A stretch of 63,959 bases of DNA, filler included, from Calcarisporiella thermophila CBS 279.70 (Eukaryota; Fungi; Calcarisporiellomycota): NCBI RefSeq assembly GCF_041956535.1. It is 5 parts of 5 records of this genome, joined end to end, with 100 filler letters (N's around TTAATTAATTAA, not from the genome) between each part and the next. Parts side by side here need not be neighbours in the genome. Positions count along the whole stretch, not along the records: positions 27,952 to 49,970 come from NW_027192236.1; positions 50,071 to 62,229 come from NW_027192218.1; 3 more parts are not named here. One strand, written 5' to 3'. The notes beneath the pieces were generated by a model, which was given only the letters and a program-made list of their open reading frames with translations, searched no databases and was not told the DNA's origin. How positions within the stretch are numbered: the stretch's first letter is position 1; every line of letters begins with the position of its first letter. The translations under genes were made by a program, and so were the position numbers. Positions 14,611 to 63,959 of this stretch are shown in pieces.

Positions 14611-14674
14611 TGCGTATCTCACAGTAGTTGTGAAGAGCGTTACCAATAATTGCATTATCATGACTCACACTCTC

Positions 14675-19023: not shown

Positions 19024-21543
19024 CTATTCAATTCGGTTATGTTCGTATGTTGTCGTTGCGTTTTTCTGTGACTTCTTCCCATGCGTGCACACAAGATTGA
19101 TACAGATTTCACTCACTCCGATCTCTTGCTCAACTCCACGCACGATCTCGTCGTACTCTTCGTTACTGATGTACATCACTTGAATCAGATATGGTCTCAG
19201 AGAATCCAGTAGTCGCATAAACCACTCTCGACCTGGTACGGTAATATATCTTGCAGAATAATCTATCGGAAATGGAATTGATATGCACTTGATATCTTCG
19301 AGGCCAATTTTGTTGAAATGAGTGGATAACCCATTAATCCAAGATGGATTAATTTCTCGCGCATGGAGAGTATTAAGCACTGTGATTGGAATAAGATCAA
19401 TATTTTTTTTTCCACTGTGATCAACAAATGCAATAAGCCTTTTTATACTAACACCCATCTGCAAGTTTTCTGAACGCTCGCCCAGATCCTTGAAGGTTGT
19501 AGTCTTTGATCATTTAAAATAAAAATGGACGTTAGCTTTCATTAGCACTCTAAATTATTTGACATGCAATTGGTTTACAGTACCCAACTCCACCACCTCT
19601 AAATATCCCCCCGGCTGAAGTACTCTCACTATCTCCCCAATGACTCTGGGCCACTCGCTCTGATACACACCAAGCCCAACACACCTAACGAACACAAAGT
19701 CAAAGCTCTCGTCTGCAAATGGGAGCGGCGCAAGGAAGTTGCCATCTTGAAAGTGGCAGTTCTCGGGTTTGATATGTTCGGGGAACCCCCTGTTGATGTC
19801 AATACCATAGAAGTGACTGCTTGGGAATTCTGCAGCCATCTCCATGGTCCAGGTGCCTGGTCCACATCTAGAACACATGAAAAGGATGTAGATGTTAATC
19901 ACCCGTGGAATGTGACAATAGTGTTCGACGTGGCTTACCCAACATCCAGCACCTTTACACCATTTAGCAATACACTTCGAACTGGTGACATGAAGTTGTG
20001 ATTGTTGAACAACGACCTAGTGAGTGTGTGGTTATACCAGTCGATCAAAATAAAGTATATCTCATTTGAAGAAGAAAATCCAACTTACCGAAACATATAG
20101 TGCTGCATAACCAATCGATCCGTCTCCTCTTCATCATTCGGCAGTATATAGTGTGCTCCTGCATCAACAAGGGGTTAGTTTATGGCTAAAAGTCAATCCA
20201 ATTAGGGCGAATAATCACCTTTGGCCCCACAGAACCTCCTCCCAAGCATCCATACATCTCCATTGCTGTCCAACTGTGGATCAGCCATATCCTCTTCTTC
20301 AAACACGCACGCATATTGTTTAGGAAATTCTTTTAGGAGCTTCATCCGTTCAAGCGGAATCGCTTCCAATGGTCTTCTTGATGACCCAGCGATATCGAGT
20401 GTTGCTTCATTGATACAGAAAGCAAAGCGAACTTTTTGACAGGGAAAAATTGCGTCTTCTTCATGTGGCTGTATCAGCTTGTCTGCAGACTTCTTCCACA
20501 TCCACAGAACTGAGCGAGACTGAGTCTCAGCTTGGTCATGAACTGTGGATGCATGAGAGATGCTTCGAGATATTGACTGAAAAGACGTCCATTTTTTGAA
20601 GATGGCCCAATTTACGAGAATTTCAGAGAAAATTGGATTGAATAGAAAGACAACAAAGCCGAGAATACCTAGCATTCCTGATGTAACGTTTTGTGCCATT
20701 GCCGTAGCATCACCGAAAGGAGTAAAACGTGTATGCGTAATAAACAAAAGTCCAAGTATACAAGTAGCTGGCATACAGACAATGAGGACTAGCGGGTACC
20801 CAAGATTTCGTAATACTGAAAGTAATATCCTAATTTCTTTATCACGAGCTTTTGATTCTTTAACCCTTCCTTTTTTCATCTTTTGAATGGTCCTGAAAAC
20901 TCGGCACAAGGAAATTATTACAATGATCAAAGAGTACAAGATGCTAGCGAGAATTATGATGCTACGCACTATTCCGAGAGCAAGTTCGGTTTCATAAGGC
21001 CAGTCATTGCTGATATATTTCTAAGAATGGTTAGTATGCAAGTATAAAAAATTAGTATCACATATTATAATGGAACAGATATTTCGCAAGTACATAATTA
21101 GTATTCCACCATGCTTTTCTATAAAATAGCTGCGGAGTCGTTGCAACAAAAGCTACCAGCGTTGATAGAGGGAGGTACCAGTTCTGATACTGTTTTATGG
21201 CAAGCTTTCCATGTATAAACGACAATTGTAGATCCAGAGTGATGCTCACGGTAAGTAGGGAAAACCAGATTGGGAAAAAAAAGAAGGACCAGAAGAGAAT
21301 TCGGCACAACCAGTTGTTGGAAGGCAAAACTGCATCATTAAAATCGTGCGCCATGAATAATAAATAAAACGCTCGGTAAAGTGCATCAGCTAAGCCAATC
21401 CAGAAACTGAGAGTAAATGAAATGTTGTTAGAAACTTTAGGGCGAACGATACGTAGCCAAATGACCATTGCCATCATAGCTAATGCAAAAAATATTGAAA
21501 CACAATTTAGCGCAACTTCCGCATTTGACATTCCGAAAATCAT
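19024..21543 (-). CDS. 7-TM GPCR-like receptor (cAMP-receptor/Git3-like) fused to a class I SAM-dependent LaeA-like methyltransferase
   Basis: Exon 1 (TM1-4) splices in frame to ORF 20202-20969 (TM5-7, GILGFVVFLFNP, then an open linker to WMLGRRFCGAK); intron 20218-20159 (GT..ctaac..CAG) joins in frame to GAHYILPNDEEETDRLVMQHY, then VLDVG|CGPGTW, GIDI, LPFADESFDFVFVR, RVLQPGGYLE. Confidence 0.7.
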
Positions 21544-22157
21544 GTTTGTACGTCTATCTATATCAAACAGGATATATATTTTAAATAATCACTTCCCTCC
21601 TTAAGCACTGGATTTAATCCTAGAAACACCCTCAAATTCCATTTGATTTTTGCATTATAAACTTTTTCTTTCTCTTCAAAGTACAAACATCTATATCCGG
21701 GTATAAAACTTTAAGGTGAGACAGTAAATCTAGGATATTTTATCTCTCGTAATACAGTATCGACTTTTAAACCACTTTTGGAAAATATGCTCATACACCT
21801 AAAGCATCTTCGAAATATCATTTATGACCGAACGCATTTGAGGTGAAGTCCTTATTAACCCTATGTTTTTTTGAAGATATGTCAATGTGCATACTTGAAT
21901 GTAAATGACAGTTGTCTATATGTTCAAGCTAGAATGTTATAAAAATGGTAGGTTTAGGTTAGGCTAATATAGTATTAATGATAAATCTGGATTCATTACA
22001 TAATTAGGACAAACCATAAAAAAATAAAGAATGAAATAATAAATAGTACTGATATATTAGATTAAATACCAATGTGTGATATTACATAAATATTCATATA
22101 GGAAATAGTACTCCCAAGGATATTTTTCTACTCATTTTTGGCCTTATTCCCCTACAA

Positions 22158-23245
22158 CTACTCAGAAGGTTGCGCTTGGCTGTCCACACGAGCGTTTGTG
22201 CCTAGACCAATAGATGAAGGAGATTGGAGAGTACTTGAGGGTTGATTTTCTTCTGGTTTTTTTACGAGAATACTAGTGTATTGGACCGTTCTTCTTTGGA
22301 ACAGCCATATATCCTTAAAGAAGGGTACGTTTGAGAGGGATTGTGTTAATGATGGATTAAACAAAAACACGATAAAATTGAGAATTCCTTGCATTCCCGC
22401 TGTAATGTTTTGTGCAACTAATGTAGCATCGCCAACGGGAGTAAATCGAGAATGCGTGGCATAAAGGAGAGCTAGGATACTTGTTGCTGGTAAACAGATA
22501 ATGAGAACTAAAGGGTATCCAAGTACTCGAATTACAGATACGATAACCTGGAGTTCTATCTTTCGGTTTTCAAACTTTTTGACTCGGTCCTTCTCCATCT
22601 TTCGAATAGTCTCGAAAACTTTGTGCAGCGAAATGATGATAATGATGATGGAGTATAAAATACTGGCGAGAATAATACTACTCTGTACAATGTTTAGTGC
22701 AAGCTCCGTTTCGTATGGCCAGTCTGTGCTTATGTATTTCTAATACATAAAAATGTAATTAATATCTTTTGATAATCATAGACAAATGTACATACATATT
22801 CTATATTCCACCACGCCTTTCTATAGAAAAGCTGTGGTGTCGTTACAGCAAATGCCACAATGGTAGATATTGGAAGATACCATCCTTGGTATTGCCTTAT
22901 GATAAGTTTCTCATGGATGAATGAAAGTTGGAGGTCAAACGCTATGCTCACAGTGAGCAATGAAAACCAGATGGGGAAGAAAAAGAACGACCAAAGTAGA
23001 ATTCGGCATAGCCAATTATTAGAAGGAAGAACTGAATCGTTGAAATCGTGTGCCATGAATAACAAATAAAATGCCCTGTACAGCGCATCAGCTAAACCGA
23101 TCCAAAAACTAAGAGTGAAAGAAATATTGTTGGAAACTTTTGGGCGCATGATACGTAGCCATACTACTATCCCCATCATCATGACAGCAAATACGATAGA
23201 AACAAGATTAAGCGCAACTTCTGCGCCTGACATTCCAAATATCAT
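22158..23245 (-). CDS. 7-TM GPCR-like protein, paralogue 3 (no fusion), 2 exons
   Basis: Same intron position as paralogue 2 (EY|KYIS); seven hydrophobic segments; ends QGILNFIVFLFNP plus a short tail and stop. Confidence 0.8.
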
Positions 23246-24689
23246 TTTCGAAAATCTATTCAAGCTCAGAATAATATAAGCTAATACGGTATATTTATCT
23301 TGTTGATGGATAAACGAATCATACCACAATTTTCAATAGAATGTGCATAGGTATTTTTTTTCCTCGACCTGTTAATCACTTATATATTTTCTCTCTCAAG
23401 AATAAGGTTTCCAGTATCACAGTTCGAAATTCAAATCATGTATTCTTAACTCAGTGTATGAATTAGTAGTTCGCTAAAACTTAGTGTTCAAACTCATTTT
23501 AGAAGTTAATAATGGTTAACATTAAGTTGGTGAGACCCTATCTCATCACCTATTCTACCATCCCTTCCTCCATCTAAATGTGCTGTTGATTCTAACCTAT
23601 AGTTGTATAAGAATTAATGTTGTGAACCTCAGCGTTATACATGTATGAGTGTATGTTCTTATTTCGTATCAGTGGAAATCTTATTATTGTGAATGACTTA
23701 AATATTGTAAGAATCCGGCGCCAAAATGCTCGAGGCAACTGAATTTGGACGAATCGCGATGCTAATAGTTTTCGTTATTGTCATTTTTTTGTCGTAGTTG
23801 CCAAAGAGCAGGAGGACAGCAGACGAAAAAGGTTTAAATGATTGGGGCAAAATTCGAATTTACGCCGGGTCAATATAGAGCACCATGATGAATTAACTTG
23901 ATAGTGAAGATCCAAATAGGAAATCATTTATTGGATATATTATATCCAATAAATGATGACGTAGTACGTAGACAGAGATTAAGAAGATCTGAAAGTAACA
24001 TATGTAACATATATAACATTTGCTCTAAGCCACAGAAAAGCCTTGGTATTCTTTTATCCCACTAGAATCATATTAATTTCTGACCGTAAATGGCTTCTTC
24101 ATCACATAAGATGGATGATGACAATGAACTGGAAATATCCAGATCAATTAAGTCAAGAAATTTCACTTATTATTTGAAGCAGTTTTTTTAATGAATCTAT
24201 ACCTTTTATAAGTATTAATATATGTAACAGGACGAACCTACTTGCAGTACTTTCCATTATTATGTGACGGTTAATTTCATTCATCATTCTCATTTTGAGT
24301 TTATTATTACCTTTTTAATATTTGTTTTATTGTTTTATGGAAGCTGCATCTTTAGTCAGCCTTTGGAAAAGCCAGATTATGTCATATTAGTTGATTTCCT
24401 ATTTTTCATATATATACTCATTCAGTCTATTTTGTTGTTCCTCACCGATCTTCTATTTTTATAAAGGTGAGGATACATCGTTTGATATTATTATTGCTAT
24501 GTTATTAATAAAGACCGATCTTCTATTTTTATAAAGATCTTCGTCTACCATTCGAACCCTGTTACAATATATGCGAATTTTGTAACTCATTTTAGTTTTA
24601 AATCTAACCCTCTTATTATAGGCGACTTTGATATATCCCATTCAAATATTTCCAAATTTTATGGAGTACCTGCAGCAAATTATGCTTTC

Positions 24690-27040
24690 GTGGATCGTCC
24701 AGCCATCATGAGAAAAATGATAGGGATTTTATCAGATAAAAATCACACAGGTGGTTGCGGAATATTGGCATTAGCGGGACTCGGCGGGATGGGTAAAACT
24801 CAACTGATGCTTCGCTATTGCTATCTCTGTCACGAAGCAAATGAATTTGTTTTTTGGCTCAACGTTAATAGCTGGACAACTACTCTCGATTCCTTTCGAA
24901 AACTTGCAAGTTATTTAGGGATCGGCGAAAACCTGCTTAATAATGAGTCAGAGGAAAATGTTATGTGCTGGGTGCGGTGTTGGCTGGAAGCAAGGGAAGG
25001 ATGGCTACTTCTTTTGGATGACTTAGACGATAGTATTAGCACAAAGATATTTAAAATATTGTCTCGCAAAGGAGGACATATAATCCTGACTACACGTGGA
25101 CCAATCTCAACTAAACTGGCTATAATTATTCAAGTGGACCGAATGTTGGAAGAGGAAGCCATCTCGTTGCTGTTAGAAAATGAGGTGTCCATCGATCGAC
25201 ATAGTGCTCGCTATTATAACGCTCGCAGGATTGTTGCTGAACTTGATTACATGCCACTTGCGATTGATCTTGCGCGTGCATACATAACAAATTCTACTTA
25301 TCCTTTTCAAGACTATCTCAGACAACTAAAAAAGAACCGACCATTGTTGTTTTCGTATCGCGATGAAAGATCAGTTGATGACTATAAGCACACGGTAGCA
25401 ACAGTTTGGGAATTAACCTTTGATCGCTTAAGGAAATTAAACCCGGCGACAGGAGTCATCCTCGAAGCTTGCGCCTTTCTTCATTCTGAAGGAATCCCAA
25501 CACGTTTTTTTGAGCGTCTGTTTTCAATTTTTGAACTTGGTTCAGAATCACTTGAACAGGATAAATTTCGATCAGCGATAGGTGATCTTAGCAAATTTTC
25601 ATTTATATCAGTGACAGTTAAAGAAGCTGATGAGAACGAGATTGAATTAATGAGCAACAGCACATTAAGCATTCGTCGACTTGTCCAAAGGATTATATTT
25701 GATTCTATCCCATATAAGAAGAAGTTATCCTGGATTCAGAAAATGGCGGTTGCACTGAATCGCGAAACACAATTTCCCGAATTCTTCGATATTTCGGCTT
25801 GGTCGGCCATGAGAGTTTATCTTCCGCGCATAAATCATTTAGTCGCAGTTGTTCTCGAACTCAATAGCGAAGAAGCATATTTCGCATGCGAGGATTTAAT
25901 CGCTTTGCTAAATACCACGACCTCATACATGCATGAAAATGGGACATTGCAGGATACAGAAAAGCTTGCACAACTTGCACTGACAATGAGTGAGATCGTT
26001 TATGGACTTGATCACATAACCACTTCACAATCTCTCCACGCTATGGCTACATTGTACTATGCTCAGGCCAAGTATGAATTGGCTGAGCCGCTCTACCAGC
26101 GTACTCTAAAACTCAGGGAGACAATATTGGGGCCTGAACACCCAGAAACTGCAGACTCCCTCAGCGGCTTATCCAATCTCTACCGGCTTCAGCTCAGGTA
26201 TGATCAAGCTGAGCCACTGTATCTACGCGCATTGACGATCAGAGAAAAGGCGTTGGGCTCTGAACACCCATACACTGCAACCCTGCTCAACGATTTCGCT
26301 GGCCTTTTTCATGATCAAGGCAAATATGAGCAGGCTGAGCCACGCTATTTGCGTGCTCTTGCGATAAGAGAGAGAAAATTAGGGGAAGATCACCCGGATA
26401 CTGCCACCTCGCTCAACGACTTAGCTAATCTCTACCAACATCAGTGTAAATATGATCAAGCTGGACCACTCTACCAACGAGCACTGGTCGTCAGAGAAAG
26501 AGTTTTAGGGGAGAACCATCGAGATACTGGGATGACACTCAACAACTTGGCGGATTTCTATCGGAATCAGGGCGAGTATAAGCTAGCCGAGACACTCTAC
26601 CTACGTGCTCTAGAAACCAGGAAAGAGTGCTGGGACCTGAACATCTGGATATTGCAGCCTCCCTCAATAATCTGGCCACTCTCTATCACGACCAAGGCAA
26701 GTACGAGCAAGCTGAACCTCTATACAAGCGTGCACTAGTGATCATCGAGAAAGAGTTGGGGGCTGTACATCCTTATACTGCTACGTCACTCAACAATCTA
26801 GCTACATTTCACTTTGACCAAGGCAAATATGAATCAGCTGAGGCTCTCTATCAACGAGTACTGGCGATCCAGGAAAAGTTGTTAGGCGCGTACCATCCTG
26901 ATACTGCAAGCTCCATTATAAAGCTGGCTGTGCTCTATGACCATCTGGGTAAATCTTATCGGGCCGAACCTCTATACCAGCGTGCTAATGCAATCAAGGA
27001 GAAGCAATTGAAAGCCACTGCCCACTTTGAATCATTCTGA
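24690..27040 (+). CDS. NLR-like NB-ARC + TPR-repeat protein with a frameshift near 26620; true start may lie upstream
   Basis: GLGGMGKTQL, WLLLLDDL, ILTTR, MPLAI motifs; tandem LGxEHPxTAxSLNNLAxLY repeats; the repeats continue in another frame (26627-27040). Confidence 0.85.
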
Positions 27041-49887: not shown

Positions 49888-49959
49888 CTCTCCGGCCGGG
49901 AATTGAACCCGGGTCGCCCGCGTGACAGGCGGGAATACTAACCACTATACTACCGAAGA
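49888..49959 (-). tRNA. tRNA-Asp(GTC)
   Basis: 72-nt cloverleaf, anticodon loop CTGTCAC, GGTTCAATTCC T-arm. Confidence 0.95.
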
Positions 49960-50070
49960 ATCTTATTGGTNNNNNNNNNNNNNNNNNNNNNNNNNNNNNN
50001 NNNNNNNNNNNNNNTTAATTAATTAANNNNNNNNNNNNNNNNNNNNNNNNNNNNNNNNNNNNNNNNNNNN

Positions 50071-50133
50071 TTTTTTTTCGTTTGTTTTCTTTACGTACAA
50101 ATATTCACGATAAACCCCAAAGCCCACGTAACA
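50071..50133. mobile_element. Right end of a family A LTR (remainder in the gap)
   Basis: Near-identical to 1400-1462, ends CGTAACA. Confidence 0.8.
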
Positions 50134-50137
50134 CTTT

Positions 50138-50733
50138 TGTCATAACTCGAGTCACATATCAAGCTATCCCAACGATTCAAGCTCCGACATTAATTAGGAA
50201 CTAGTTAGGGGGAGGGTTAGTGTAGTGGACTATCCCTGGTATGCCGATGAGAACGGCGTGGGTTCAAATCCCACTTCCCCCACCAGCACTTACTCTTAGT
50301 TTGTGGCTGCTATCCACTTGATCAGAAGCTGAGTCTTGGTTATTGAAAAGACCGCCCTTACGATAAGTACAAAAGATTACATCGGTTTCACGTACATGCT
50401 ATACACGACAACTGCGATACACGCATATCGATTGAAAGTCTATCGATCAAGGACCTATATCTCGTTAAGTCCATTGACATTAACTTCATGTAATATATGG
50501 AAATTAAATAAAAAGTTTCCATTGATTGATCAAAAAAAAAAAATTAGGAACTAGTTATAAACCAGTATTCATTAGCTTAATTAGTTAACAGGTTATATAG
50601 TTATTATATCTTATAGTATAAAAGGAACACTCTAATGAGAACTTCCAACATACACACCTGGTTCTTGAATAAACCTATAGTTTTACCTATGTTCCCCGAG
50701 TATCCCCTAGATATATCGCTCTAGTTTATGACA
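50138..50733. mobile_element. Solo LTR, family B, TSD CTTT, containing a SINE
   Basis: TGTCATAA...TTATGACA termini; CTTT at 50134-50137 and 50734-50737. Confidence 0.85.
50208..50541 (+). mobile_element. tRNA-derived SINE family 1, full length, 16-bp TSD
   Basis: A box TAGTGTAGTGG, B box GGTTCAAATCCC, poly(A) tail; TSD aattaggaactagtta at 50192-50207 and 50542-50557; further copies at 52934 and 60219. Confidence 0.9.
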
Positions 50734-50736
50734 CTT

Positions 50737-51153
50737 TGTTACGACGAGAATAGGGTAACGTGGAGCATAAGGTTGTGACGGCGTTTTTGGGATTCGATAT
50801 CTTTCAAAGAAGATGCATATTTCAGTTTTACTGGGTATTACCATTTATTTTAGTTTTATTGAGGATTTTCTTGGTTTTATTGAATACTAGCAACAGTTAT
50901 AGTCTTATTGAATATTGAGCTATTCTTTGATTATTTGTTATGAGTCATAGTTTTATCTAACATTATTATAAAAAGGGTGATAACTTTTATGTAATAAAGC
51001 AAGGATTCAAAGTTCTATTTTCTTGATATCAAGTTCTCGGCATCTCCTATCTTAAGTGCGGGTCTGCATACGGATAAGCAGACGACTTGAGATAGCGCTC
51101 AGATAGTTGAGATAATCCCCTCATACCACACATCTCCTGTTTCCAACATAACA
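50737..51153. mobile_element. Solo LTR, family C
   Basis: TGTTA...TAACA termini, wedged between LTRs B and D. Confidence 0.6.
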
Positions 51154-51156
51154 TCT

Positions 51157-51597
51157 TGTTGCGTCGAATATATGTCTAATAAGGTCTATCCCGACAATCC
51201 TCTAGCTATCCCTAAGCTCTTGATTGTCCTTCCTTAAACACTTCAGAAGGCTAATAAACGACACAAGATGGTGGTTTGAAACGTATCCGGTTCTATCTCA
51301 ATACAAAATAGCACGTCTTTTATTGTAAATGAAATATCGGTCTTTTTATACTGTTGTTAACGTATCACATAGGGAAAAATATAAATAATAAAAGTAATAA
51401 AATGGCATCATCTCAATATAATAAAGTTATCATAAAATAAGGTTGGCGTAATAAACAACTGTATAATATTAAATATTCTCACAAAAGGACTCAGTTAAAG
51501 AAATAAAGATAATAAAAGCGATCAAGTCACAAAAGCTAAGCCTCCATTTTCTACTACTGCGCCATTGATCCATTTAGTTCCAAATTTCCTCACAACA
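51157..51597. mobile_element. Solo LTR, family D
   Basis: TGTTG...CAACA termini; homologous to 590-1002. Confidence 0.8.
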
Positions 51598-51663
51598 TTC
51601 TAATATGGTGGAAATTGGACCTTTGTAGTAGAAAATTAAAAGCAGCCACGAAAAAGTCGGATT

Positions 51664-51919
51664 GTATTGTCGCCACCCGGGCCAAACTAGATATTGAGGA
51701 AGTGATAGGAGCCGAACTAATCCGAGCACGAAAAAACCGGCAAATCGAACAGTTTCGAAGAAGGTGGTGCAAGTTGGGTGCGGTCAGAAAAGGAGCGATC
51801 GGAGCGGCACTGATATTGGGATAACGCAATAACCCCTACCTTATCCCCTTCCTATCCTCTGCTTCCATTGCTTACTCCCCACTCCATTTTTCTTGTTATC
51901 CTTTGATATCCACAGTTCA
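51664..51919 (+). mobile_element. 5'-truncated LINE 3' fragment (family 1-related)
   Basis: RAKLDIEEVIGAELIRARKNRQIEQFRRRWC is homologous to the ORF2 C-terminus at 59513-60004. Confidence 0.8.
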
Positions 51920-52921
51920 GCTACGGAGACTTTTATTAGTTACCGTAGCTTACAAGAGTCTAATGATTACAATGAAAAAAGAAAGGGGGGAATAAAGGGG
52001 TTGAGATATAGTTAGGTGGCAAGGTGGAACTTAGGTTTTGACCATTTATGTTAGCCCAGAAAAGAAGAGAAGAGAAGGAAGCAAAGAAACGCAAGGGGGT
52101 AAGAACATAAAGAAGGTGATAAACGTGGAGTAAGGGAGTAAAGGGTAGAGTAGATGTATATAGTGATCGGGTATTTGGTGAAAGATATGGAGTAAAGAGG
52201 AGGGGAGGAGGTAAAGAGCGGATTGGGAGAGAGGAAGGGTTGCTTCGTCACTCCAGTTTTAGTCTTGCTCTATCCGAACTTTCTATTACCGCTCCCTGAC
52301 CGCACCACCTTCTTCGGAATAACTCTATCTCTCGTCTTTTTTGTGCCTTTATCAGTTCAGCTCCGATAGCCGCCTCGATGTCCATTTTGGCACGGACGAT
52401 GATTGTCTCGGGTGATGCTCGAATGCATTCGAAGTGGTAGGCTATTCGGTCCCGATGGATTTGCCATAGCACCGAATCGAAGACGATTTGAGCCGCGTGT
52501 CTTACTGTCCTCGGGGCTTCTGGTAGGTCGCCAAGTACGAGGTTCCTGGGGCTCAGCACCTGAGTGTTTAGGGGGCCTGAGATGGCGTTGATACACCTTT
52601 CCGTCCAATGCCACACTGATGTGAGTTCGGGACATTTGAAGAAGGTATGACGGATGGTGTCCCTCGGAGCGTTACAGCGGGTACATTTCGGGTCATGACC
52701 GGGGAATGTCGAGTTTGTAATCACACGCTCTACGAGGATTCGCCAGCGTAGTGTGCAGTGCTTTGGGAGTGTTGGCCGTTTTTGAATGGAGGTCCAGACC
52801 TTTTCCCATTCCTTTGCCGTGGATGCAACCTCTGGTCAGGATTGGGGCGTCAGCGTTTCTGGTTCCGGAGAACCATTTCGCTAGAAGTGTCTTCCCCGTC
52901 GGATGGAGTATTCCAGGACGT
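51920..52921 (-). mobile_element. 5'-truncated L1/Tx1-like LINE, family 1
   Basis: zf-RVT-like LWRIL...CTRC...DTIRHTFFKCP C-terminus; near-identical to 59591-60204; pyrimidine-rich 3' UTR. Confidence 0.9.
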
Positions 52922-52933
52922 TGCACTAAAAAA

Positions 52934-53272
52934 TTTTTTTTGATCAATTAATGGAAACTTTTATTTAATTTCCATATATTATATGAAGTTAATGTCAATG
53001 GACTTAACATAATGAGATATAGGTCCTTGATCGATAGGCGTGCAATCGATATGCGTGTATCGTAGTTGTCGTGAATAGCATGTACGTGAAACCAATGTAA
53101 TCTTTGTACTTATCGTAAGGGCGATCTTTTCAATAATCAAGACTCAGCTTCTGATCAAGTGGATAGCAGCCACAAACTAAGAGTAAGTGCTGGTGGGTGA
53201 AGTGGGATTCGAACCCACGCCGTTCTCATCGGCATCCCAGGGATAGTCCACTACACTAACCCTCCCCCGCCC
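52934..53272 (-). mobile_element. SINE family 1, full length, TSD tgcactaaaa
   Basis: Reverse complement of 50208-50541; TSD at 52922-52931 and 53273-53282. Confidence 0.9.
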
Positions 53273-53353
53273 TGCACTAAAATTTGGGGCCGTTCATAGA
53301 AGCAAAAAAAATCTCAGATCTGTAGTATTTTTTGAAAAAATTTTACAAAAAGG

Positions 53354-53426
53354 GTTCCTATGGTCTAGTGGTTAGGACATTCGCTTTACACGCGAAGGAT
53401 CGCCGGTTCGAACCCGGCTAGGGACA
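53354..53426 (+). tRNA. tRNA-Val(TAC)
   Basis: Acceptor stem GTTCCTA/TAGGGAC, anticodon arm TTCGC-TTTACAC-GCGAA, T-run terminator. Confidence 0.95.
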
Positions 53427-54404
53427 CTTTTTCTCATTCTTATTTTTACTTTTACTTTATATTAATTAGTAAACTATGCAGAATACATATAAATCATACA
53501 TTTTTTATTTATTTATACTCTCACAGCATAGGTGTGCTTTGTAAAAACTCGTTTAAATATTGTAACCCTATAATTTTTTTCACGGCTCCATATATAAAAT
53601 CTTCAACTTATAGATGGAGTTGAGAGCGGATATTTTTGTAAGTTTAAAAAAAAAGAGAGCATGTGGAAAATATTTTTACCGCTACATAACTTTAAGGAGT
53701 TTAACCGTTTGAAATTGCCAAAGTTACATTATGTGAGATATGATTGCGTAGGCTTTCAAAAACATTGTGAGAAAAATATGTATACTAAATTGTAAATTAT
53801 GATTCGACGTCTATAAAGTAATGATTGAAAACTATACGCAAATTACTACAATAAATAATATTTAGGAGAACATTTGAAAATATTTGGTATTTGTGATAAG
53901 ATTTTATTATTTGGTATAAACTCAATAGAACTTTTTTTCATTTTATGTGAAAGTGAGCAATATGACTTTTGACGTGTCGCAGAAGACAATCGCTTAGTGC
54001 AATAACATGACCAAGCTATCTACTACAATACTTTCTAACATAATATATGAAAACAGGACAAATTTAGATTCTAACCAAGCCAAACTCCACTAAAGGAGCA
54101 TCTAGAACATGGACCAAGTTGAAACCTGATTTTATTATTTTTTCTTTATTGACCGGCTTCTTTCTGTTTTAATCGAATATAGTAACTTCAGATTTACATT
54201 TTATAATAGCATACCAATTTTTTGATTTTTTTTATTAATCCCTCTTTATCAAACAGAGTTTGTTTATTTTTCTCTATTCTGTACTTAATATCAAGCTACC
54301 TCACAGACCTAACTTTTAGGCTAATTTCAGGTAGAGGCCCTTATGTAATAAAAATAGGCCTATGGTGAACTTTGGATTGAAATAGAAAAATATCAAAAAA
54401 ATTG

Positions 54405-54488
54405 TCCGGCCACCCGGATTCGAACCAGGGACCTAAAGATTGCCAACGATACTACAGTCTTCCGCTCTACCAGCTGAGCTATAGCCGG
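54405..54488 (-). tRNA. tRNA-Tyr(GTA) with an 11-nt intron
   Basis: CCGGCTATAGCTCAGCTGGTAGAGCG...CTGTAG[tatcgttggca]ATCTTT...GGTTCGAATCC; canonical intron position. Confidence 0.95.
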
Positions 54489-54559
54489 ATCACGGTCTTT
54501 CTGTCAAGAAGTTTATTCTTTATATGGGAACTTATAATAGCAGTCACACAGACAGTCAC

Positions 54560-54748
54560 ACTTACACTTACATCTGCTCCTTCCCTTGTTCAGCGTCCTA
54601 ATGTCTCCACCTCTTATCTTATACACATCACGGACTTTATACACCCTTAAATTCTTGCATGGATTTCTTTTCTTCTGATGTTTATCAATTGCTTTTTTAA
54701 GAATGAAAAAGGATACTTTTAATAAAGATCCTCTCAACAAAAAAAAAA
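54560..54748 (+). mobile_element. Short LINE 3' tail (family 3/4-like); left boundary approximate
   Basis: Ends aaaaaggatacttttaataaagatcctctcaac(A)10, resembling the tails at 62150-62188 and reverse complement 58427-58470. Confidence 0.55.
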
Positions 54749-55166
54749 TGCACATAGGAACTCTAAGTCCTATGTATGCATTACACGAGTTTTGCACCAT
54801 CTTTTGCAAGCCTAATGCTTGTGTTTATTGCATCTGTGCTTTATTTCTTTATATTACTAGTTAAGCTGGTTAGCATTTTATAATATTTGATCTCAATATT
54901 CTATAGCTTGATACTATATTTTGACGGTATTTTTGGTATAATCACCGACTAAAACTTTTACCGTCAGAAAATATTGTTGTATTGCTTTTGCCAATTTTTT
55001 CAATACCTAGCAAAATTATGCCCATCTAATCCATTGAGAGTTATGATCTAAGTGCATTCCCACCAAAAAACTTTATTTCAATTCAAAAGATATAACACAC
55101 AGCTTATAGGATCATCACCGCATTAAGGACAATTCTCCTAATATTAGGTTGGGACTCACCCGCTTT

Positions 55167-55978
55167 TTACACCTCATCAAATTGCCATTGCTGTTTTATA
55201 TTATTGGGGAAATCCTAACATAATTAGATATTCACACAATCGGTGTTATAAATTATCTCGGATTTTAATAACATATTGTGCAAAATACTCAAACTCTTAC
55301 TATCAGCTCTGTTACCACAATCTTTGTACCATCGTCGAATTTATTGTCGTGCACTGCAAGACAGACTTTGGGATCGAAGGGCTGTAGATATTCATAATTG
55401 TAGCTGTATGAACAAATTAAATAGAGTTATTTTCTCATTTTTCGCAGCTGATAACACTTCGAATTCTAATGCCACAAATATTAATACTAGCAACTGGTAT
55501 ACATACGCCCAGAGCTGATTTATACTCGTTGGTGGCTCTCTCCTTTTTGCCTGTACTATATCTGACCCAGGTTTCAGGTTTCCTCCACCAATGCCTCCCT
55601 GAACTTCCAGAACAAAGCCAGTTTCTTTGTTGATAATATAGCCATCCTCGTATCTAAATAAGAATATAGTTAGTAATTTAGACCCTAATTTTTTTTTATG
55701 TTTGAGGCTGGATAGAGATACGATTTAGTTAATAACTCGAAAGAGGAGATTATTATAATTAAGGCAAAAATATTTTAGAGTATTTGAAAGGATAGATGAA
55801 GATATCAATGAATTAAGAAGATTCTAGATATTTACTTCCACAACTGGTTATCATTGAGCAAAGACTTCCTGTGCCAAAGAATAATATTTGCCCCTTCTTT
55901 TTTACTATGGTCCTTAACGTCGAGGACTTTTCCACTAAACACGTTCCGAATGAAAAAATATCCTTCAGGAAAAGACAT
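55167..55978 (-). CDS. Ricin-B (beta-trefoil) lectin-like protein, 4 exons, absent from the ORF track
   Basis: MSFPEGYFFIRNVFSGKVLDV...DNQLW..YEDGYIINKETGFVLEV...INQLW...KQQWQFDEV; three QxW repeats; no signal peptide. Confidence 0.85.
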
Positions 55979-56769
55979 CGTATCGTAAATTTAGCTACTT
56001 AAATTTGCTTTTTGAATAGTAAATAAATCGATCGAAAGTGATCATTTTATATATCATGATTAATTACTGACTTGGACTATATGCACTAATCATGTGTTCG
56101 CTTGGATTAATATTTTACGGTTCAATTAGAAAAATTGAAGTTTAATAAATTATATAATTTTACCCGGTTGATCAGAAAATTTGCTTAATAATGAATGTAT
56201 TAGCGATACGGCGTGAGAGCACAACATCTTACATGCACGCAATTTTTTGCCAGATGGTGAAAAATTCCTCGTATGCGATAGATGGAATCAATACCCGATA
56301 TACTGAATTACCATATCCGATTTTGGAGTAAAAGTATCCGAAATGGCATATGTATATTCACATAAATCAAATACCACTTAACCCAAGATATTCATTCACG
56401 TATCAACCTTAATATAAAACTCTATATTATTTATACAAACTTCAGAACTATTTCTCATTAAGGCTGACTATGCAAGATCACCTAAAAACTCTATACTTTG
56501 AACTGATGAGAATAAAGCCAAACAAATTAAAGTTGTTCTCAATAGCTTTATTACTGGGTTTTGTCTCTAATTTTTTAACAACCTTTCAACAAAGCATTTT
56601 CCTTTTCCTTATGCATACCACATTTCATTTTCATCTCTCTTCTTTTATAAACAGTATACAGTATAGTTAAACCGTGGGAGAAATGAATCTTCGACGAAGC
56701 GTGTGCAGATTCGCACGGCACTTGGTATACATTAATAATTTAAGCCTAAGGTAGTATTAAAACTATTTC

Positions 56770-58764
56770 AAGTGCTTGGTTCATAGGAAATGAGAAAAAG
56801 AAAGGGAAAGATTAAGAGCAAAAGCTACAACATAAAAGGCAAGGGTAAAGCCAGTAGGATTGAATGGAATCAGGGGAAGTATATGTATTAATCGATATTG
56901 TGTGAAGGATAGTATAGATAGGTGCAGAGTTGTTATGGAGTGGTATGGGAAACAAGAATTAATAAGAAAAAAAGGTTTCATTAAATAACTACAGAGTAAA
57001 AAAAAAAAAGAAAAAATGGCAGGGGAAATGAGATAAGCCATTGTATCATTTCAGTTCAACAGTTCCTTATAATCTCGCACCTCTTATTCACTTCTTTCTC
57101 TGGAACCAATCAAGCTCTCGCCGCTTCCGTACTCATAACGATTCTGCTCCTATGACCTCCTCGAAATTATGTTTAGCACCCCCGGTAATAATATGGTGAG
57201 AAAATCGATATTATAAAAGTGGAAAACGATTTGGTCCCGCTTTATTTGCCAGAATACCGAGTAAAGTGCAAGTTTGGCGCCACGTCTTGTCGGTATTTGA
57301 AGTCTCAAATATATCACCAAGTAGCTGGTATCGGTCAGCTAATGCTTGGGTAGCCTATGGCAATGCGATGGCAAGGGTCCATCATTTCGCATTTGGGGTA
57401 TTTGTATCTAATAATAATGTATTCCACAAGAATCCGACAATTTAGTTAATGGCAGCATCGGCCTTTTCTTTTCCTTTAGGGCGCAATTACTTGAGTCCTT
57501 TGATTTATTTATAGTATATTGTAAAAGTTACGGAAGGTTTTGAACTAGATCATTAAGTACTAATACACCTTTATCCATTCCTGCTTGAATCTTTCTTTGA
57601 TTTTTTTTCTGTGCTTGTACATATTGCCCTTTGATTGCACGAAATAAATCAGATAGAAAGATAGATTTGAGAGTAATACAATGCTCTTGGGCATCCATGA
57701 CAATTGCAACCCTCTTTTCCTATATATTCCATACTATAGTAACGTATAGAAGCATGGCGATTTGTCAGTTTTCCTTGCGTCTCCTTGTGGAAACTGATGA
57801 GTTGCTCGTATCACTGGACGTGCATCCAGGGCTTATCTAGGATCCTCTGATGGAGTATATTGAATCACCTCTAAAGGTCGCCAATTCTCGCATATTCAGA
57901 GAAGTCGTGTATTATGGTCTCTATCTCTTCTCGTTGGCATCCCTTGCAGTCAGTGCTGGACTGGTCAAAGTGTTGAGCAGTTTTTGCAGTGACTAGCTTA
58001 AGTTTGTAAGATATGCTATAGAAGGATACAGTACTTTGATTCATATGGGAGTCTGGGCTAGTTATTCCAGGTTAAACTCCGAAACCCACTAGGTCACCCG
58101 GGGACGACGAGTAAGTCCCCTTTTTTTAAAAAAAGGGCCATTATTGAAAAGTATCTTATCCTTGTAAGAGGTAGGGTAGCGTCTACGTCAATAACACTCA
58201 GGCAATGCTCCTGGTTTACTTTGAGAGAAAACGGAGAGATAGGAAAAAGAGGAAAATAGGAGAAGTCTGCAATAGTATTATGATGTATTACTCATGTACA
58301 TGAAATAGAAGAACAAGGGTAACACATAAAGGAAAAAAGATAAAGGAACTGACTTTGATCTACAGCAGAGGTGGGTAGGGTGCGGATCTCAAGTGGTTAG
58401 GTTAAGACGGCGAAAATGGTCCCATCTTTTTTTTGAGATTAATGGGCCATTATTGAAAAGTATCCTTTTTAGTTAATAAAGTGACTCGACAGTCCTCAAA
58501 AACAAGAAATACATGTAAGCAATGGTTGGGCGTGTGAATACCAACCTACTTTTCAAGGAAGGTAGTATACAAGAAAAGAAAGGAATAAAAAACAAAAAAA
58601 ATAAAAGGAAAATTGGAATGCGGGTGGTAGGGTATTCGGCAAGGTCGTATTGGAGCTAAGTGTTTTGGTTGAAGCATATTCCGTCTCCTTAAACTTGTAT
58701 CCAACTTCCCTTACACCAAAGTTCTTGAAAATCCTCTTTCTTATCCTTTATGGGCGCTGGCCAC
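56770..58764 (-). mobile_element. Stack of four 5'-truncated LINE 3' fragments, all on the minus strand
   Basis: About 56770-57330 family 1-like; 57464-58115 homologous to 60528-61375; 58121-58410 tail homologous to 62090-62188; 58427-58764 with TSD cgaaaatgg(t/c)cccatc at 58411-58426 and 58765-58780. Confidence 0.8.
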
Positions 58765-59431
58765 CGAAAATGGCCCCATCNNNNNNNNNNNNNNNNNNNN
58801 NNNNNNNNNNNNNNNNNNNNNNNNNNNNNNNNNNNNNNNNNNNNNNNNNNNNNNNNNNNNNNNNNNNNNNNNNNNNNNNNNNNNNNNNNNNNNNNNNNNN
58901 NNNNNNNNNNNNNNNNNNNNNNNNNNNNNNNNNNNNNNNNNNNNNNNNNNNNNNNNNNNNNNNNNNNNNNNNNNNNNNNNNNNNNNNNNNNNNNNNNNNN
59001 NNNNNNNNNNNNNNNNNNNNNNNNNNNNNNNNNNNNNNNNNNNNNNNNNNNACACTCTTATTACAAAACAATTATGATGATCTTTTAGAATTAAAAAAGA
59101 AATTATTTAATTTAGATCTCTTCTTATTTAATAAAAAATCCAATATTAAAAATTATATATGAAATTTTACATGTTATTCTCCAACGGATATGTAATTATT
59201 ATATCGTGAAAATTTTTTGTATAGATTTTGTATAGACTTCGCTAATATTACTATATCTTATGAAAATATCCTACAAAACAAATATTCAGTTGGAGTATTG
59301 GAGTAAACTCAAAGTTTTTACTTTTCCTGTGAGCAGAATGTAGTCAGTCAAGGATCGCGATAAACTCTGTACTAGCAAGATAAAATAGATATAATTTTCA
59401 ATAGATTTCATGGGAAAATAAAAATACAAAG

Positions 59432-59505
59432 TGCTCGTGACAGGGATCGAACCTGTGACCTTGGCGTTATTAGCGCCACGCTATAACCAACTTAGCTACA
59501 CGAGC
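59432..59505 (-). tRNA. tRNA-Ile(AAT)
   Basis: 74-nt cloverleaf, anticodon arm TGGCG-CTAATAA-CGCCA, GGTTCGATCC. Confidence 0.95.
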
Positions 59506-59590
59506 TCGAACTATGTTTTGTCACGTGAATTTGTACATAACTATAATGACTTTTTACAATTTTTTGAGAGCGATGAGGTCCCAAAAACGG

Positions 59591-60204
59591 GACACCATCC
59601 GCCACACCTTCTTCGAATGTCCCAAACTCACATCAGTGTGGCATTGGACGGAAAGGTGTATCAACGCCATCTCAGGCCCCCTAAACACTCAGGTGCTGAG
59701 CCCCAGGAACCTCGTACTTGGCGACCTACCAGAAGCCCCGAGGACAGTAAGACACGCGGCTCAAATCGTCTTCGATTCGGTGCTATGGCAAATCCATCGG
59801 GACCGAATCGCCTACCATTTCGAATGCATTCGAGCATCACCCGAGACAATCATCGTCCGTGCCAAAATGAATATCGAGGAGGCTATCGGAGGTGAACTGA
59901 TAAAGGCACGTAAAAGACGAGAGATAGAGTTATTCCGAAGAAGGTGGTGCGGTCAGGGAGCGGTAATAGAAAGTTCGGATAGAGCAAGACTAAAACTGGA
60001 GTGACGAAGCAACCCTTCCTCTCTCCCAATCCGCTCTTTACCTCCTCCCCTCCTCTTTACTTCATACCTTTCACTAAATACCCGATCACTATATACATCT
60101 AATTTACCCTTTATTCCCCCCTTTCTTATTTCATTGTAATCATTAAACTCTTGTAAGCTACGGAAACTAATAAAAGTCTCCGTTGATTGATCAAAAAAAA
60201 AAAA
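59591..60204 (+). mobile_element. 5'-truncated LINE family 1, 19-bp TSD
   Basis: ORF2 C-terminus, 3' UTR, poly(A); TSD gatgaggtcccaaaaacgg at 59572-59590 and 60205-60223. Confidence 0.9.
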
Positions 60205-60218
60205 GATGAGGTCCCAAA

Positions 60219-60513
60219 AACGGCGTGGGTTCGAATCCCGCTTCCCCCACCAGCACTTACTCTTAGTTTGTGACTGCTGTCCACTTGATCAGAAATTGAG
60301 TCTTCATTATTGAAAGCATCCCTCCTACGATAAGTTCAAAGCTTACATCGGTTTCACGTACATGCTATTCACGACAACTACGATACACGCATATCGATTG
60401 AACGCCTATCGATCACGGACCTATATCTTGCTATGTTAAGTCCATTGACATTAACTTCATGTAATATATGGAAATTAAATAAAAAGTTTCCATTGAAGAT
60501 CAAAAAAAAAAAA
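60219..60513 (+). mobile_element. SINE family 1, 5'-truncated, 14-bp TSD
   Basis: B box retained; TSD gatgaggtcccaaa at 60205-60218 and 60514-60527. Confidence 0.9.
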
Positions 60514-60527
60514 GATGAGGTCCCAAA

Positions 60528-61375
60528 TATAGCTGGCGTCAATATCAAGCTTTATTCTATCAAGTTTGGCAGACTATACCAGATACCACCAGATCAAGTA
60601 GGGGTAACCAGAGAATGGGTGCATGTCAGATGAAGGAGCGTGGAGACGAGCTTGGAAGAGCTGGCCGAGACGCCCAAGCGAGCCAAAGCAAAGGATTCTT
60701 CGATGGCGTATACTTCAACATAAGTTAATCACAGCAAGAATTGCTCAACACTTCGACCATTCTATCCCCAACTACAAGAGATGCCGACGAGAAGAGGTAG
60801 AGATCATTGAACACGCGTACTTTGAATGAGCGAGAATTGGAGACCTTTGGAAGTGGTTTGACAGACTCCATCAAAAGATCCTCGATAAGCCCTGGACAAG
60901 CATGCAAAAGTATGAGAAGCTCTTCGGATTCCACAAGGAGACGCAAGGCAAAGGTCGACAAGTCTCCATGTTGTTACACGACATCATGGTCTGAAGAATA
61001 TATAAGGCCAGGATCACAACTGTCATGGACAACCAAGAACATGGGGACATCGCATTCAAGTGTATCTTTTTATCAGATCTACTCATAGCAATCAAAGAAC
61101 AATGGATACAAGCACAGAGGAATAAAGCTGAAGAAAATTTCAAGCAGAAATGGGGAAAGAGCTCGCTAATCCGGATGGATGATAACAATGAAGTAGTTTT
61201 CGATATTGAGGAAGCAAAAAATACATAATTTGATCCACTTGAGCACGGAACTCTTTAAGTTTCATCCCTTGTTTTTTAGTACTTAATTATCTTATTCGGA
61301 AGTATCCTTCACATTTGTAATATATATTAAATAAACCACAGGACGCAAGTTCTCACGTCCTTAGAGGAAAAAAAA
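60528..61375 (+). mobile_element. 5'-truncated LINE, family 2
   Basis: WRILQHKLITA...KRCRREEVEIIEHAYFE zf-RVT-like region, degenerate; poly(A) end; second copy at 57464-58115. Confidence 0.85.
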
Positions 61376-61394
61376 GCGATAGGGCCGCAATGTT

Positions 61395-61747
61395 GGGTGG
61401 GGGGAAGTAGCTTAGTGGTGAAATAGTCCATGGAGCCATCGATGACGATGGCGCGGGTTCGAATCCCGCTACCCCCACCCAGCACACCTGTGCCTGGACT
61501 ATCCACTATCCCAGTCTGGCTCTCTCACCTCTCTTGTAACTTTTGCCAGTAATTGGCTATAACCTTCACAAAATCATACAACCTTTGATTCATTTTTCAC
61601 CATCTATATTCTGTTAAAAATTGTCAAAAAAAACATCTCAAAAAAGGCTGGCCAGAAGCATAATCTGGGTGATTTTTGACGTAGAAGGCAACCCTGCCTT
61701 TCACTTGTAAAGGAGACTTTGCAATAAAGGTTCTTAGTTAAAAAAAA
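61395..61747 (+). mobile_element. tRNA-derived SINE family 2, 13-bp TSD
   Basis: A box TAGCTTAGTGG, B box GGTTCGAATCCC, poly(A); TSD gggccgcaatgtt at 61382-61394 and 61752-61764. Confidence 0.8.
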
Positions 61748-61764
61748 GGGGGGGCCGCAATGTT

Positions 61765-62188
61765 CTGTGATCTTTACCTAGGACGCCTCTGATCATCAAA
61801 CCTCAGTCCCGACTCCGTCTTGAGAACCACACCCAACCTCTCACTGCTTTATATTAATATCTTTTTTTTTTCTTCTCTTTCTTCATTATACATGTACATA
61901 TGCAACTTATCTTAATACTGTTGCACACACCTTATTATATCACTCCCTCTCACAAATATTCCTTTCTCTTTCTTGATTACCCTAATTTCTGTTCCCCTTT
62001 TCCTAGTTCTTTCCTTTTCACCTTTTCTCTCTTCTTCTTTCACATACACTATTTTTTGTTCTTTTTCCTTCTAACTTCCAGATCCTTCGAGGTAGGCCAG
62101 GAGCATTACCTGGGTGATTTTGACGTAAATCCATCCTACCTTTTGACAGGATAGGATGCTTTTCAATAAAGATCCTTTGTTAAAAAAA
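61765..62188 (+). mobile_element. LINE family 3, 3' UTR fragment
   Basis: Pyrimidine-rich, poly(A), followed by a diverged TSD copy ggggaccgcattgtt; homologous to reverse complement 58121-58410. Confidence 0.7.
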
Positions 62189-62329
62189 GGGGGGACCGCA
62201 TTGTTGAAAAAAAAAAGAGATAAGGCCACNNNNNNNNNNNNNNNNNNNNNNNNNNNNNNNNNNNNNNNNNNNNTTAATTAATTAANNNNNNNNNNNNNNN
62301 NNNNNNNNNNNNNNNNNNNNNNNNNNNNN

Positions 62330-63959
62330 AGAATTGGCTATCACATAGGCAACCAGCCGCTTATTGCTCTCTGCTCCTAAAACAACCACTACAGCCTCGG
62401 CTACCAAAGGATGTTCATGCAGACGCTCCTCAATCTCGCCAAGCTCGATTCGGAAACCGCGGATCTTGACTTGATGGTCATTGCGACCCAGATATACCAG
62501 GTTGCCATCAGGAAGATACCGAGCCAAATCTCCAGTCTTGTACATCCGTGCTTTAGTGTCTCCAGCAAAGGGATCTGGAAGGAATCTCTCAGCGGTCAGC
62601 TCTGGCCTGTTCAAATAGCCTCGTGCCACGCCAACGCCACCAATATACAGCTCTCCCATTGCTCCGAGAGGTACTGGATTGCCATGTGTGTCCAGAATAT
62701 AGATCCGCTTGTTGATTAGAGGACGACCAATTGGCACCAAGTTGTTTCGAATGTCTCTTGTGGATTTCCATGATGTTGCAGCCACGGTGGTCTCGGTAGG
62801 ACCATACTCGTTGATGATAGTACAGCTGGGAAGCATATCATGCATTCTTCGAACAAGCGTGGCTGAGATTGCTTCTCCTGCAATGATTAACGTTGTCGGT
62901 GTGCTCAGAGACGGCAAATCCTTGCATTCCTGAAGTACTGCGGGTGTTAGCACGACATGGGTAATTGAGTGCTTTTCAAGATACTCCCATAGTTGATACC
63001 GGTCAAATCGAGTACTATCCTGTAATAAATGAAGGCTCCCTCCAAGGCATAGGGTAGGGAATATCTCACACACACTTGAATCGAAGCTGAATGAAAAAAA
63101 CTGCGAGAGTCGAGAGCGAGAGTCGAGGCCAAGGGATACTTGGCGGGATTTGACCAGGTTTACGACACCGAAATGCTCGAGCATCACTCCTTTTGGCCTG
63201 CCGGTAGTTCCCGATGTATAAATGATGTACGCGAGATGGTGGGACGACAGGCTGGGAATATGAGGGTTGGCAGTTGGACCTCCTGGCAATGCATTTGGAT
63301 CTACAATGGCCAATTTTGACATGTCCGCTCCTTGAAGCGCTGCAGTACCACGCGTATCTGCCAGAACTACAGATGGAGATGCATCCGAAAGAATGTCAAG
63401 GAGACGCTCACTGGCATACGCAGGGTCAAGAGGCACGTAGGCACCCCCACTCTTCAGAATTGCCAATATTCCGATGATCAGTCCAAGCGAACGCTCGACA
63501 CAAATTCCTACGGGAGCGTCAGGCTGAACACCGAGCTTGATGAGATGATGTGCTAGGCGATTGGCGCATGCATTCAGTTCGGAATAGGTCAGGGACTGAT
63601 CCTCGTGCACGACAACAATGGCATCGGGCGTGCGTGCGACTTGCTGCTCAAAGAGGTGGTGGAGGCACAGGTCAGCTGGATAGTCCTCCTGAGTCATATT
63701 CCATGTCTGCAGAAGTAGTGTGCGCTCAGTAGGTGTCAAGAGATCAGTGGCACTGATGAGCTGATCCACATCAGCTGTCATTGCTCGTAACAACGCAGTC
63801 AAATAACCGACATGCCTTTCGATTGTTGAGCGATCAAACAGAGACGTGGCATAGCGTAGACTTCCTGCAATTCCTCCTTCCGACTCATAAAGCATGAGTT
63901 CAAGATCGAACTTGACTGACTCATAAAACAGACCATAGGGTGCTGCTTGTAGACCCTCT
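62330..63959 (-). CDS. Non-ribosomal peptide synthetase fragment (end of a C domain plus an adenylation domain), intronless
   Basis: VKFDLEL, YTSGTTGRPKG (A3), NEYGPTE, GELYIGGVGVARGYL, YKTGDL, QVKIRGFRIELGEIE; runs off the window and into the gap. Confidence 0.95.

Follow-up and report, generated by a model that had tools for sequence, protein, structure and literature searches.

What sets the landing site of the retrotransposons lacking long terminal repeats (non-LTR elements) that crowd the upstream flanks of tRNA genes in Calcarisporiella thermophila CBS 279.70, the sequence of the target or its distance from the gene? The question is raised by a stretch of 63,959 nucleotides of this fungus (hereafter the window), in which positions 27,952–49,970 come from record NW_027192236.1 and positions 50,071–62,229 from NW_027192218.1; 100 filler N's separate the two records, which are not necessarily neighbours in the genome. 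An Rfam scan of the window found four tRNA genes (57–71 bits), all also called by ARAGORN: tRNA-Asp(GTC) at 49888–49959 (−), tRNA-Val(TAC) at 53354–53426 (+), the intron-containing tRNA-Tyr(GTA) at 54405–54488 (−) and tRNA-Ile(AAT) at 59432–59505 (−). Their strands alternate (−, +, −, possibly +, −) across 10 kb (49888–59505), and the divergent intervals are filled by stacks of retrotransposon pieces. Our analysis supports the conclusion that insertion upstream of these genes is position- and orientation-specific, and set by distance rather than by sequence. Where the spacer can be measured, long and short interspersed nuclear elements (LINEs and SINEs) lie head-to-head with the tRNA genes 66–71 nt upstream of them, most likely placed there by a LINE complex tethered to the RNA polymerase III (Pol III) complex, a reading to which we assign a probability of roughly two in three.

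Self-comparison, combined with element-piece and protein searches, identified 15 non-LTR pieces in the window. Fourteen form five stacks at 50.2–62.2 kb, within the 12-kb tRNA cluster, and a single one, at 1–591, lies in the other 50 kb. They derive from 5′-truncated L1-type LINEs and from tRNA-derived SINEs, with poly(A) ends and target-site duplications (TSDs) of variable length (13–19 nt). Each stack has a single orientation, and 10 of the 14 stacked pieces aim their 5′ end at one of the four tRNA genes. At all four visible genes, the 5′ end of the elements faces the 5′ end of the tRNA gene, as the initial annotation had proposed and as Rfam and self-comparison bear out; the AT-rich downstream flanks of the same four genes contain no elements. 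The chance of four head-to-head loci out of four is, alone, 1 in 16. The spacer between the tRNA gene and the proximal TSD is exactly 66 nt at Ile and 68–71 nt at Val, the values first reported. With the distance recovered at Asp (see below), three spacers lie inside a 6-nt window; if insertions fell uniformly over 200, 500 or 1000 nt, this would happen in 0.2%, 0.04% or 0.006% of draws, respectively. The landing site is common to six LINE types and two SINEs, with at least four LINE families among them, again in agreement with the earlier count. The target duplications are unlike between loci, as had been noticed (none of six pairs is significant, p = 0.09–0.91), whereas copies of the target within a stack are alike (p < 0.05 for 9 of 12 adjacent pairs). 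At individual genes, the succession of insertions in time can be read from the stacks.

That order is clearest at tRNA-Ile, where five pieces follow the spacer on the + strand. The innermost is a LINE-A 3′ remnant (59572–60223), 96.6% identical to the Val-side copy and flanked by a 19-nt TSD (59572–59590 and 60205–60223). Outside it come a 5′-truncated SINE1 (60219–60527), whose 14-nt TSD begins at the same base as that of LINE-A; the first copy of LINE-B (60528–61374), with a decayed C-terminus of open reading frame 2 (ORF2) and poly(A), 25–30% identical to the related proteins P0002 and P0008 (E 1e-11 to 3e-15); a SINE2 (61381–61765) with a tRNA-like head carrying A and B boxes, a C-type 3′ tail and a 13-nt TSD; and a C-type LINE tail with a diverged TSD, beyond which another poly(A) run borders the gap (61766–62229). 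The 19-nt duplication of LINE-A contains the first 5 nt of the neighbouring SINE1. SINE1 was therefore inserted earlier, and LINE-A reused the exact nick on its tRNA side; such base-exact reuse favours distance over sequence. The target copies diverge progressively outwards (5 of 6 adjacent pairs, p < 0.05), and the frame of the inner LINE-A is open; in LINE-B, stop codons and a frameshift interrupt it. The layout described for TRE5 elements of Dictyostelium, with the 5′ end pointing at the tRNA gene's 5′ end and tandems growing on the tRNA side, is thus found at all four visible genes for orientation and at Ile for order. The Val stack, on the − strand, is shorter. A SINE1 copy (52920–53285, body 52934–53272, proximal TSD 53273–53285) stands at the 68–71 nt spacer, and beyond it lies a LINE-A 3′ remnant (51923–52917), 88% identical to P0001 and encoding a zf-RVT domain (PF13966, E 2.8e-8) within 52248–52835; all four protein matches of that segment are C. 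thermophila gene models, at 71–88% identity. Near 51920 (51900–51960), this LINE-A and the Asp-side LINE-D are fused tail-to-tail at a shared 3′ hairpin, and both poly(A) ends are lost.

The Asp locus adds a third distance. The initial annotation had noted that its elements lie across an assembly gap; they are on the + strand and do face the gene, and the gap does not hide the distance entirely, because the sequence to its right is the end of a solo-LTR-like element, X (50071–50133), whose remainder is presumably in the gap. Over 58 nt, this end piece shows 96.6% identity to the terminal part of a complete copy at 1009–1462, which has TG...CA ends, a 7-bp terminal inverted repeat and a 4-bp TSD. 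The visible spacer from X to tRNA-Asp is 11 nt. Next comes the solo-LTR-like W (50138–50733), with an 8-bp terminal inverted repeat and a 4-bp TSD (CTTT), a pattern seen in 9 of 2000 resampled sequences. W is interrupted, 54–56 nt from its end, by a SINE1 copy (50193–50557, +, body 50208–50543) with a 14–16 nt TSD. Once X is discounted, the SINE1 spacer amounts to 11 + 4 + 54–56, that is at least 69–71 nt, if the gap holds X and its duplication alone. This SINE landed in LTR W, itself an earlier insertion, and no other observation argues as strongly that distance matters and sequence does not. Further out lie two probable solo LTRs, both less certain: Z (50737–51153), a single copy with TG...CA ends and 6 of 8 terminal bases complementary, and Y (51160–51597), with TG...CA ends and 73% identity to the copy at 592–1002. 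The outermost piece is a LINE-D 3′ remnant (51677–51925, +) comprising the ORF2 C-terminus and 3′ untranslated region (UTR), its poly(A) lost, with 98% identity over 48 amino acids to P0002. A search of the window for the LTR pattern gave 11 matches, of which two were taken up. The four LTR-like pieces appear to have entered about 11–16 nt upstream of tRNA-Asp, and they probably represent a Ty3/DGLT-A-like system that shares this gene with the LINEs, as a second system beside the LINE/SINE finding.

tRNA-Tyr faces an old C2-type LINE tail (54555–54748, +), 69% identical over 96 nt to 58427–58519; homology begins at 54654 and the 5′ boundary is uncertain. The fifth stack, which like the LTR-like pieces at Asp and the related LINE at 1–591 goes beyond the initial annotation, comprises four pieces on the − strand, running from 58780 to about 56690. 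From the inside outwards, these are a LINE-C2 ORF2 C-terminus with its tail (58411–58780, 86–91% to P0269), a C1-type LINE tail (58120–58410, from self-comparison), a second copy of LINE-B (57466–58105, 71% to 60642–61159) and, outermost, the decayed ORF2 C-terminus and 3′ UTR of LINE-E (56690–57440), found by similarity searches. LINE-C2 has a 16-nt TSD, equalled in none of 3000 null windows, and its proximal copy abuts the assembly gap of 271 N (58781–59051) that the stack faces. We predict that this gap hides a tRNA gene on the + strand; such a gene would have room there and would reproduce the convergent arrangement of Val and Tyr. The stack might also be read as TRE3-like, inserted downstream of tRNA-Ile, but this was rejected: the 651 nt that separate them, with the gap size an estimate, are far beyond the 40–150 bp given for TRE3 (PMC5911963). 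Instead of plain poly(A), the C-type tails have at their end a few A's and then a run of G's (58117–58135, 61741–61752 and 62181–62192).

The isolated piece at 1–591 (−) belongs to the A/D lineage and is 57–63% identical to P0011. It aligns to the endonuclease end and linker of relatives bearing PF03372 (E 2e-9 and 2e-12); the complete domain was not recovered from it. It is followed by tandem solo-LTR-like copies of Y (592–1002) and X (1009–1462), which repeat the order found at tRNA-Asp; the flanks of this Y do not match, suggesting rearrangement. After LINE, Y and X, the region 1–1520 ends in a 46-nt stretch terminating in T9, which may be a deleted tRNA gene. This possible remnant (about 1474–1520) matches 11 of 15 bases of tRNA-Asp, a score equalled by 50 of 5000 null windows, nine of them with a T run.

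What are the elements? The LINE remnants are 83–98% identical to C. thermophila gene models, in line with the earlier attribution of the system to an early-diverging fungus, which we take to belong to Mucoromycota. The window itself contains no reverse transcriptase (RT), and we relied on P0008, which carries one and is 69% identical to LINE-A and 83% to LINE-D. Among solved structures, its best match is human L1 ORF2p, at E 2e-16, with R2 at 2e-8. Together with the C-terminal zf-RVT (PF13966), poly(A), variable TSDs and 5′ truncation, the L1-type RT assigns the family to the L1 clade. Relatives outside the close group are mostly 24–35% identical, and a search for full-length relatives of P0001 returned two weak plant matches alone. 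In a quick-search tree of 118 L1/Tx1-like proteins (two of 120 rows left out), which includes no identified TRE5 row, the Calcarisporiella sequences form a clade (support 100) placed weakly beside L1s of the Mucorales Rhizopus, Mucor and Lichtheimia (Shimodaira–Hasegawa-like approximate likelihood-ratio support 87). The third match by features, a mainly basidiomycete cluster named BQ5605_, a prefix that we take to denote Microbotryum, is a lead only.

Both SINEs combine a tRNA-like head with an unrelated body, poly(A) and a TSD; A- and B-box patterns served to recognize the heads. SINE1 occurs in three copies at 90–94% identity, with traces in P0003 and P0247, and SINE2 in one copy in the window. 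The 3′ end of SINE1 has 66 nt in common with the LINE-A tail at 82% identity, including the same hairpin, which is predicted in all five LINE-A and SINE1 ends that were folded; that of SINE2 has 120 nt in common with the C-type tail at 76%. One SINE1 stretch translates to 12 of 13 residues of a C. thermophila gene model, and the SINE1 pattern had no match in metagenome contigs.

We examined 26 close relatives among gene models, 14 of them named C. thermophila and the remainder similar. Six join two or more families, head-to-tail in P0003, P0247, P0269 and P0349 and head-to-head in P0004 and P0011, which indicates that stacks recur at other loci. Residues 44–69 of P0004 resemble a translated antisense tRNA-like head facing a LINE-A copy, in a context nearer to that of SINE heads than to a tRNA gene. 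The pattern for this head, written after the peptide had been seen, had no match among 366 other proteins, which total 287,835 residues. It is probably the head of a third SINE family, and SINE heads may themselves act as targets.

Several known systems resemble this one. TRE5-A, TRE5-B and TRE5-C of Dictyostelium discoideum are likewise L1-like, with an RT and a C-terminal zinc finger, poly(A), head-to-head placement and tRNA-side tandems (PMC5391098; PMC5911963); for TRE5-A, strict orientation, tandem formation and dependence on the B box are described (PMC5391098), and TRE5 ORF1 contacts TFIIIB (PMC5911963; PMC5391098). The TRE5 passenger, TRE5-A.2, keeps ORF1, whereas the passengers here are tRNA-derived SINEs, and the host is a fungus. 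NLTR-B of Polysphondylium pallidum is an independent non-LTR element found 39–64 bp upstream of tRNA genes (PMC5006619); in it the zinc finger is replaced by an RNase H, whereas the family described here has zf-RVT and no RNase H is listed for its proteins. Among LTR elements, Ty3, Tca8/beta and DGLT-A insert at the tRNA transcription start, and the Asp pieces, at about 11–16 nt upstream, fit into the windows of 6–30 and 13–33 bp listed in PMC5911963; the latter, however, are solo-LTR-like ends alone, without integrase or RT by which to class them. Tx1L, Keno, Kibi, Koshi and Tx1-Mar share with our elements an L1/Tx1-type ORF2, fixed sites and passengers (SINEU) that use the same site (PMC4494074), but the sequence-specific Tx1 families cut a conserved sequence whereas targets here differ between loci. 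The L1s of Mucorales, including Grem-LINE1, are also fungal members of the L1 clade; Grem-LINE1 is pericentromeric, and the word ‘tRNA’ is absent from the preprint text (10.1101/706580). Zorro3 of Candida, a fungal L1-clade element too, targets poly(A) (PMC7175516). The TSDs described here are of mixed sequence, and the poly(A) target on both flanks expected of Zorro3-type homing was not found. The tRNA-targeted non-LTR elements in the table of PMC5911963 are dictyostelid only, the reviews and dictyostelid studies consulted name such elements for social amoebae alone, and titles and abstract openings, with subscription papers and Repbase outside our scope, revealed no fungal tRNA-targeted LINE or SINE. 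The Calcarisporiella system is best described as TRE5-like: it operates in the manner of TRE5 and is distinct from it, with SINE passengers and a longer spacing in addition.

A number of observations weigh against placement at a fixed distance by a tethered complex. The spacing and stack results come from one window and three measurable spacers, and the third spacer depends on the assumed content of the Asp gap. At Tyr, where the initial annotation had estimated about 70 nt, no significant TSD pair was found (p = 0.12) and the spacer could not be measured, so that the orientation and the poly(A) end (54739–54748) are what this locus shows. No tRNA gene is visible for the fifth stack, and no recognizable tRNA was found at the 5′ end of the LINE at 1–591, the latter a weak objection. 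Three of the 12 adjacent target pairs within stacks are not significant. When all four LTR-like pieces are discounted, the LINE-D junction falls about 91 nt from tRNA-Asp, with a nick near 72–77 for a 14–19 nt duplication. Moreover, the layering puts LINE-D before four LTR-like insertions and a SINE, yet it is 98% identical to P0002; the later events would have followed quickly, and this is a weak point. What the gene models reveal is clustering, and not distances or where tRNA genes lie; neither ORF1 nor a full-length element was recovered. The individual 3′ hairpins are weak (z from −2.8 to +0.1). Finally, TRE5-A insertions peak at 47 ± 3 bp, about 20 nt nearer to the gene than the 66–71 nt found here, although this distance is inside the wider genomic range of 37–90 given for TRE5 elements (PMC5006619).

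Could the pattern then arise without a tether? A tRNA gene might merely fix the place of the first nucleosome upstream and of an AT-rich stretch that is left open, the boundary being nicked by an unspecific L1 endonuclease. The first 50–60 nt upstream are indeed AT-rich and, at Ile and Val, G+C climbs close to the nick; a chromatin feature would also account for the use of one site by six LINE types and two SINEs, with no need of a conserved contact. Passive targeting of this kind leaves unexplained the strict orientation of the five stacks, the base-exact nick reuse at Ile and the element-free AT-rich downstream flanks. It also sits poorly with distant L1/Tx1-like metagenome loci, where, among the matches listed, one of 80 (of 519 confirmed) has a tRNA gene, on its 3′ side, and a tRNA gene is absent from all 15 L1 loci for which 5.5 kb or more of upstream sequence is available; tRNA placement is thus no general L1 habit. 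These loci are all distant, and for the two that come nearest to Mucorales L1s the upstream DNA is too short, so that they serve as a baseline and not as a test of the lineage. We regard passive targeting as unlikely.

Two further explanations fare worse. The elements might land in each other, as Zorro3 does in poly(A), or a tRNA cluster poor in genes might be the one place where they survive, the spacing being coincidental. The region is gene-poor and repeat-rich, two element groups have no visible tRNA, and the gene-model stacks show no tRNA genes; nevertheless, the target duplications are not poly(A), growth at Ile occurs at the 5′, tRNA-proximal end, and survival bias yields neither a 6-nt spacer window nor a single orientation, which makes this origin improbable. 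Least credible is an endonuclease that reads a degenerate motif upstream of tRNA genes, in the manner of Tx1 families, which pick their targets through endonuclease sequence specificity (PMC4494074). Its attraction is that Ile, Val and the gap stack each have, close to the nick, a loose patch rich first in G and then in C (p = 0.09 for Ile compared with the gap stack), as well as RT neighbours, by score, that include a cluster with a coral member. At Ile and Val, however, the patch is not on the same side of the nick, and it is absent at the SINE1 site inside LTR W; the between-locus comparison of TSDs given above, in which no pair was significant, speaks against a shared motif. The Tx1-type target specificity mentioned in the initial annotation therefore did not hold, L1-like as the elements are.

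Returning to a tethered LINE complex, the following sequence of events can be proposed. If target-primed reverse transcription applies, the tRNA-proximal edge of the TSD would mark the first nick, on the sense strand of the tRNA gene. The tether may contact TFIIIB, with the nick falling just past its upstream edge, an idea taken by analogy from TRE5. Each new copy would enter between the tRNA gene and the copy before it, as seen for one Ile pair and as the outward-increasing decay suggests elsewhere. SINE1 would borrow the proteins of LINE-A/D, and SINE2 those of the C-type LINEs, via their shared 3′ ends, and would thereby inherit the site. The SINEs encode no protein and yet go to the same nick, so that the protein responsible for targeting has to act in trans. 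The separate LTR elements would use the transcription start, about 11–16 nt upstream, and push older LINE/SINE layers outwards. It is also possible, if doubtful, that all this reflects an old fungal lineage of Pol III-tethered L1s inserting 60–75 nt upstream in Mucoromycota, anther smuts and budding yeasts, with the Calcarisporiella SINEs recruited in trans to the same nick, SINE heads perhaps seeding new sites and an LTR system sharing the genes.

The remainder of the window contains other reading frames with Pfam matches to NPR3, PAT1, an ABC transporter, NB-ARC-TPR, copia and a non-ribosomal peptide synthetase (NRPS). The copia element (14673–17824; gag, zinc knuckle, protease and integrase) has 118-nt direct repeats at 98% identity, adjoins a gap and is not near a tRNA gene. 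Three paralogous segments at 17958–23259, 71–76% identical, have no significant Pfam match; 24486–26738 holds an NB-ARC plus tetratricopeptide-repeat (TPR) gene resembling fungal NOD-like receptors, and 62282–63958 an NRPS condensation-adenylation module. A fifth ARAGORN call, tRNA-Arg at 63735, lies inside the NRPS reading frame without Rfam support and was rejected, as were the low-threshold ARAGORN calls and, with scores below the gathering score, the tmRNA matches on SINE heads.

If our interpretation is true, Calcarisporiella provides an example from fungi in which several LINE families and true SINE passengers keep to a fixed distance that differs from the known one, and LINEs either reached the safe haven of Pol III genes again or have kept it for a long time. 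The SINE passengers make the mechanism testable, as they separate models based on ORF1 acting in cis, on ORF2 and on chromatin. Because it writes at a set distance from Pol III genes, such a LINE would also be of interest as a safe-harbour insertion tool.

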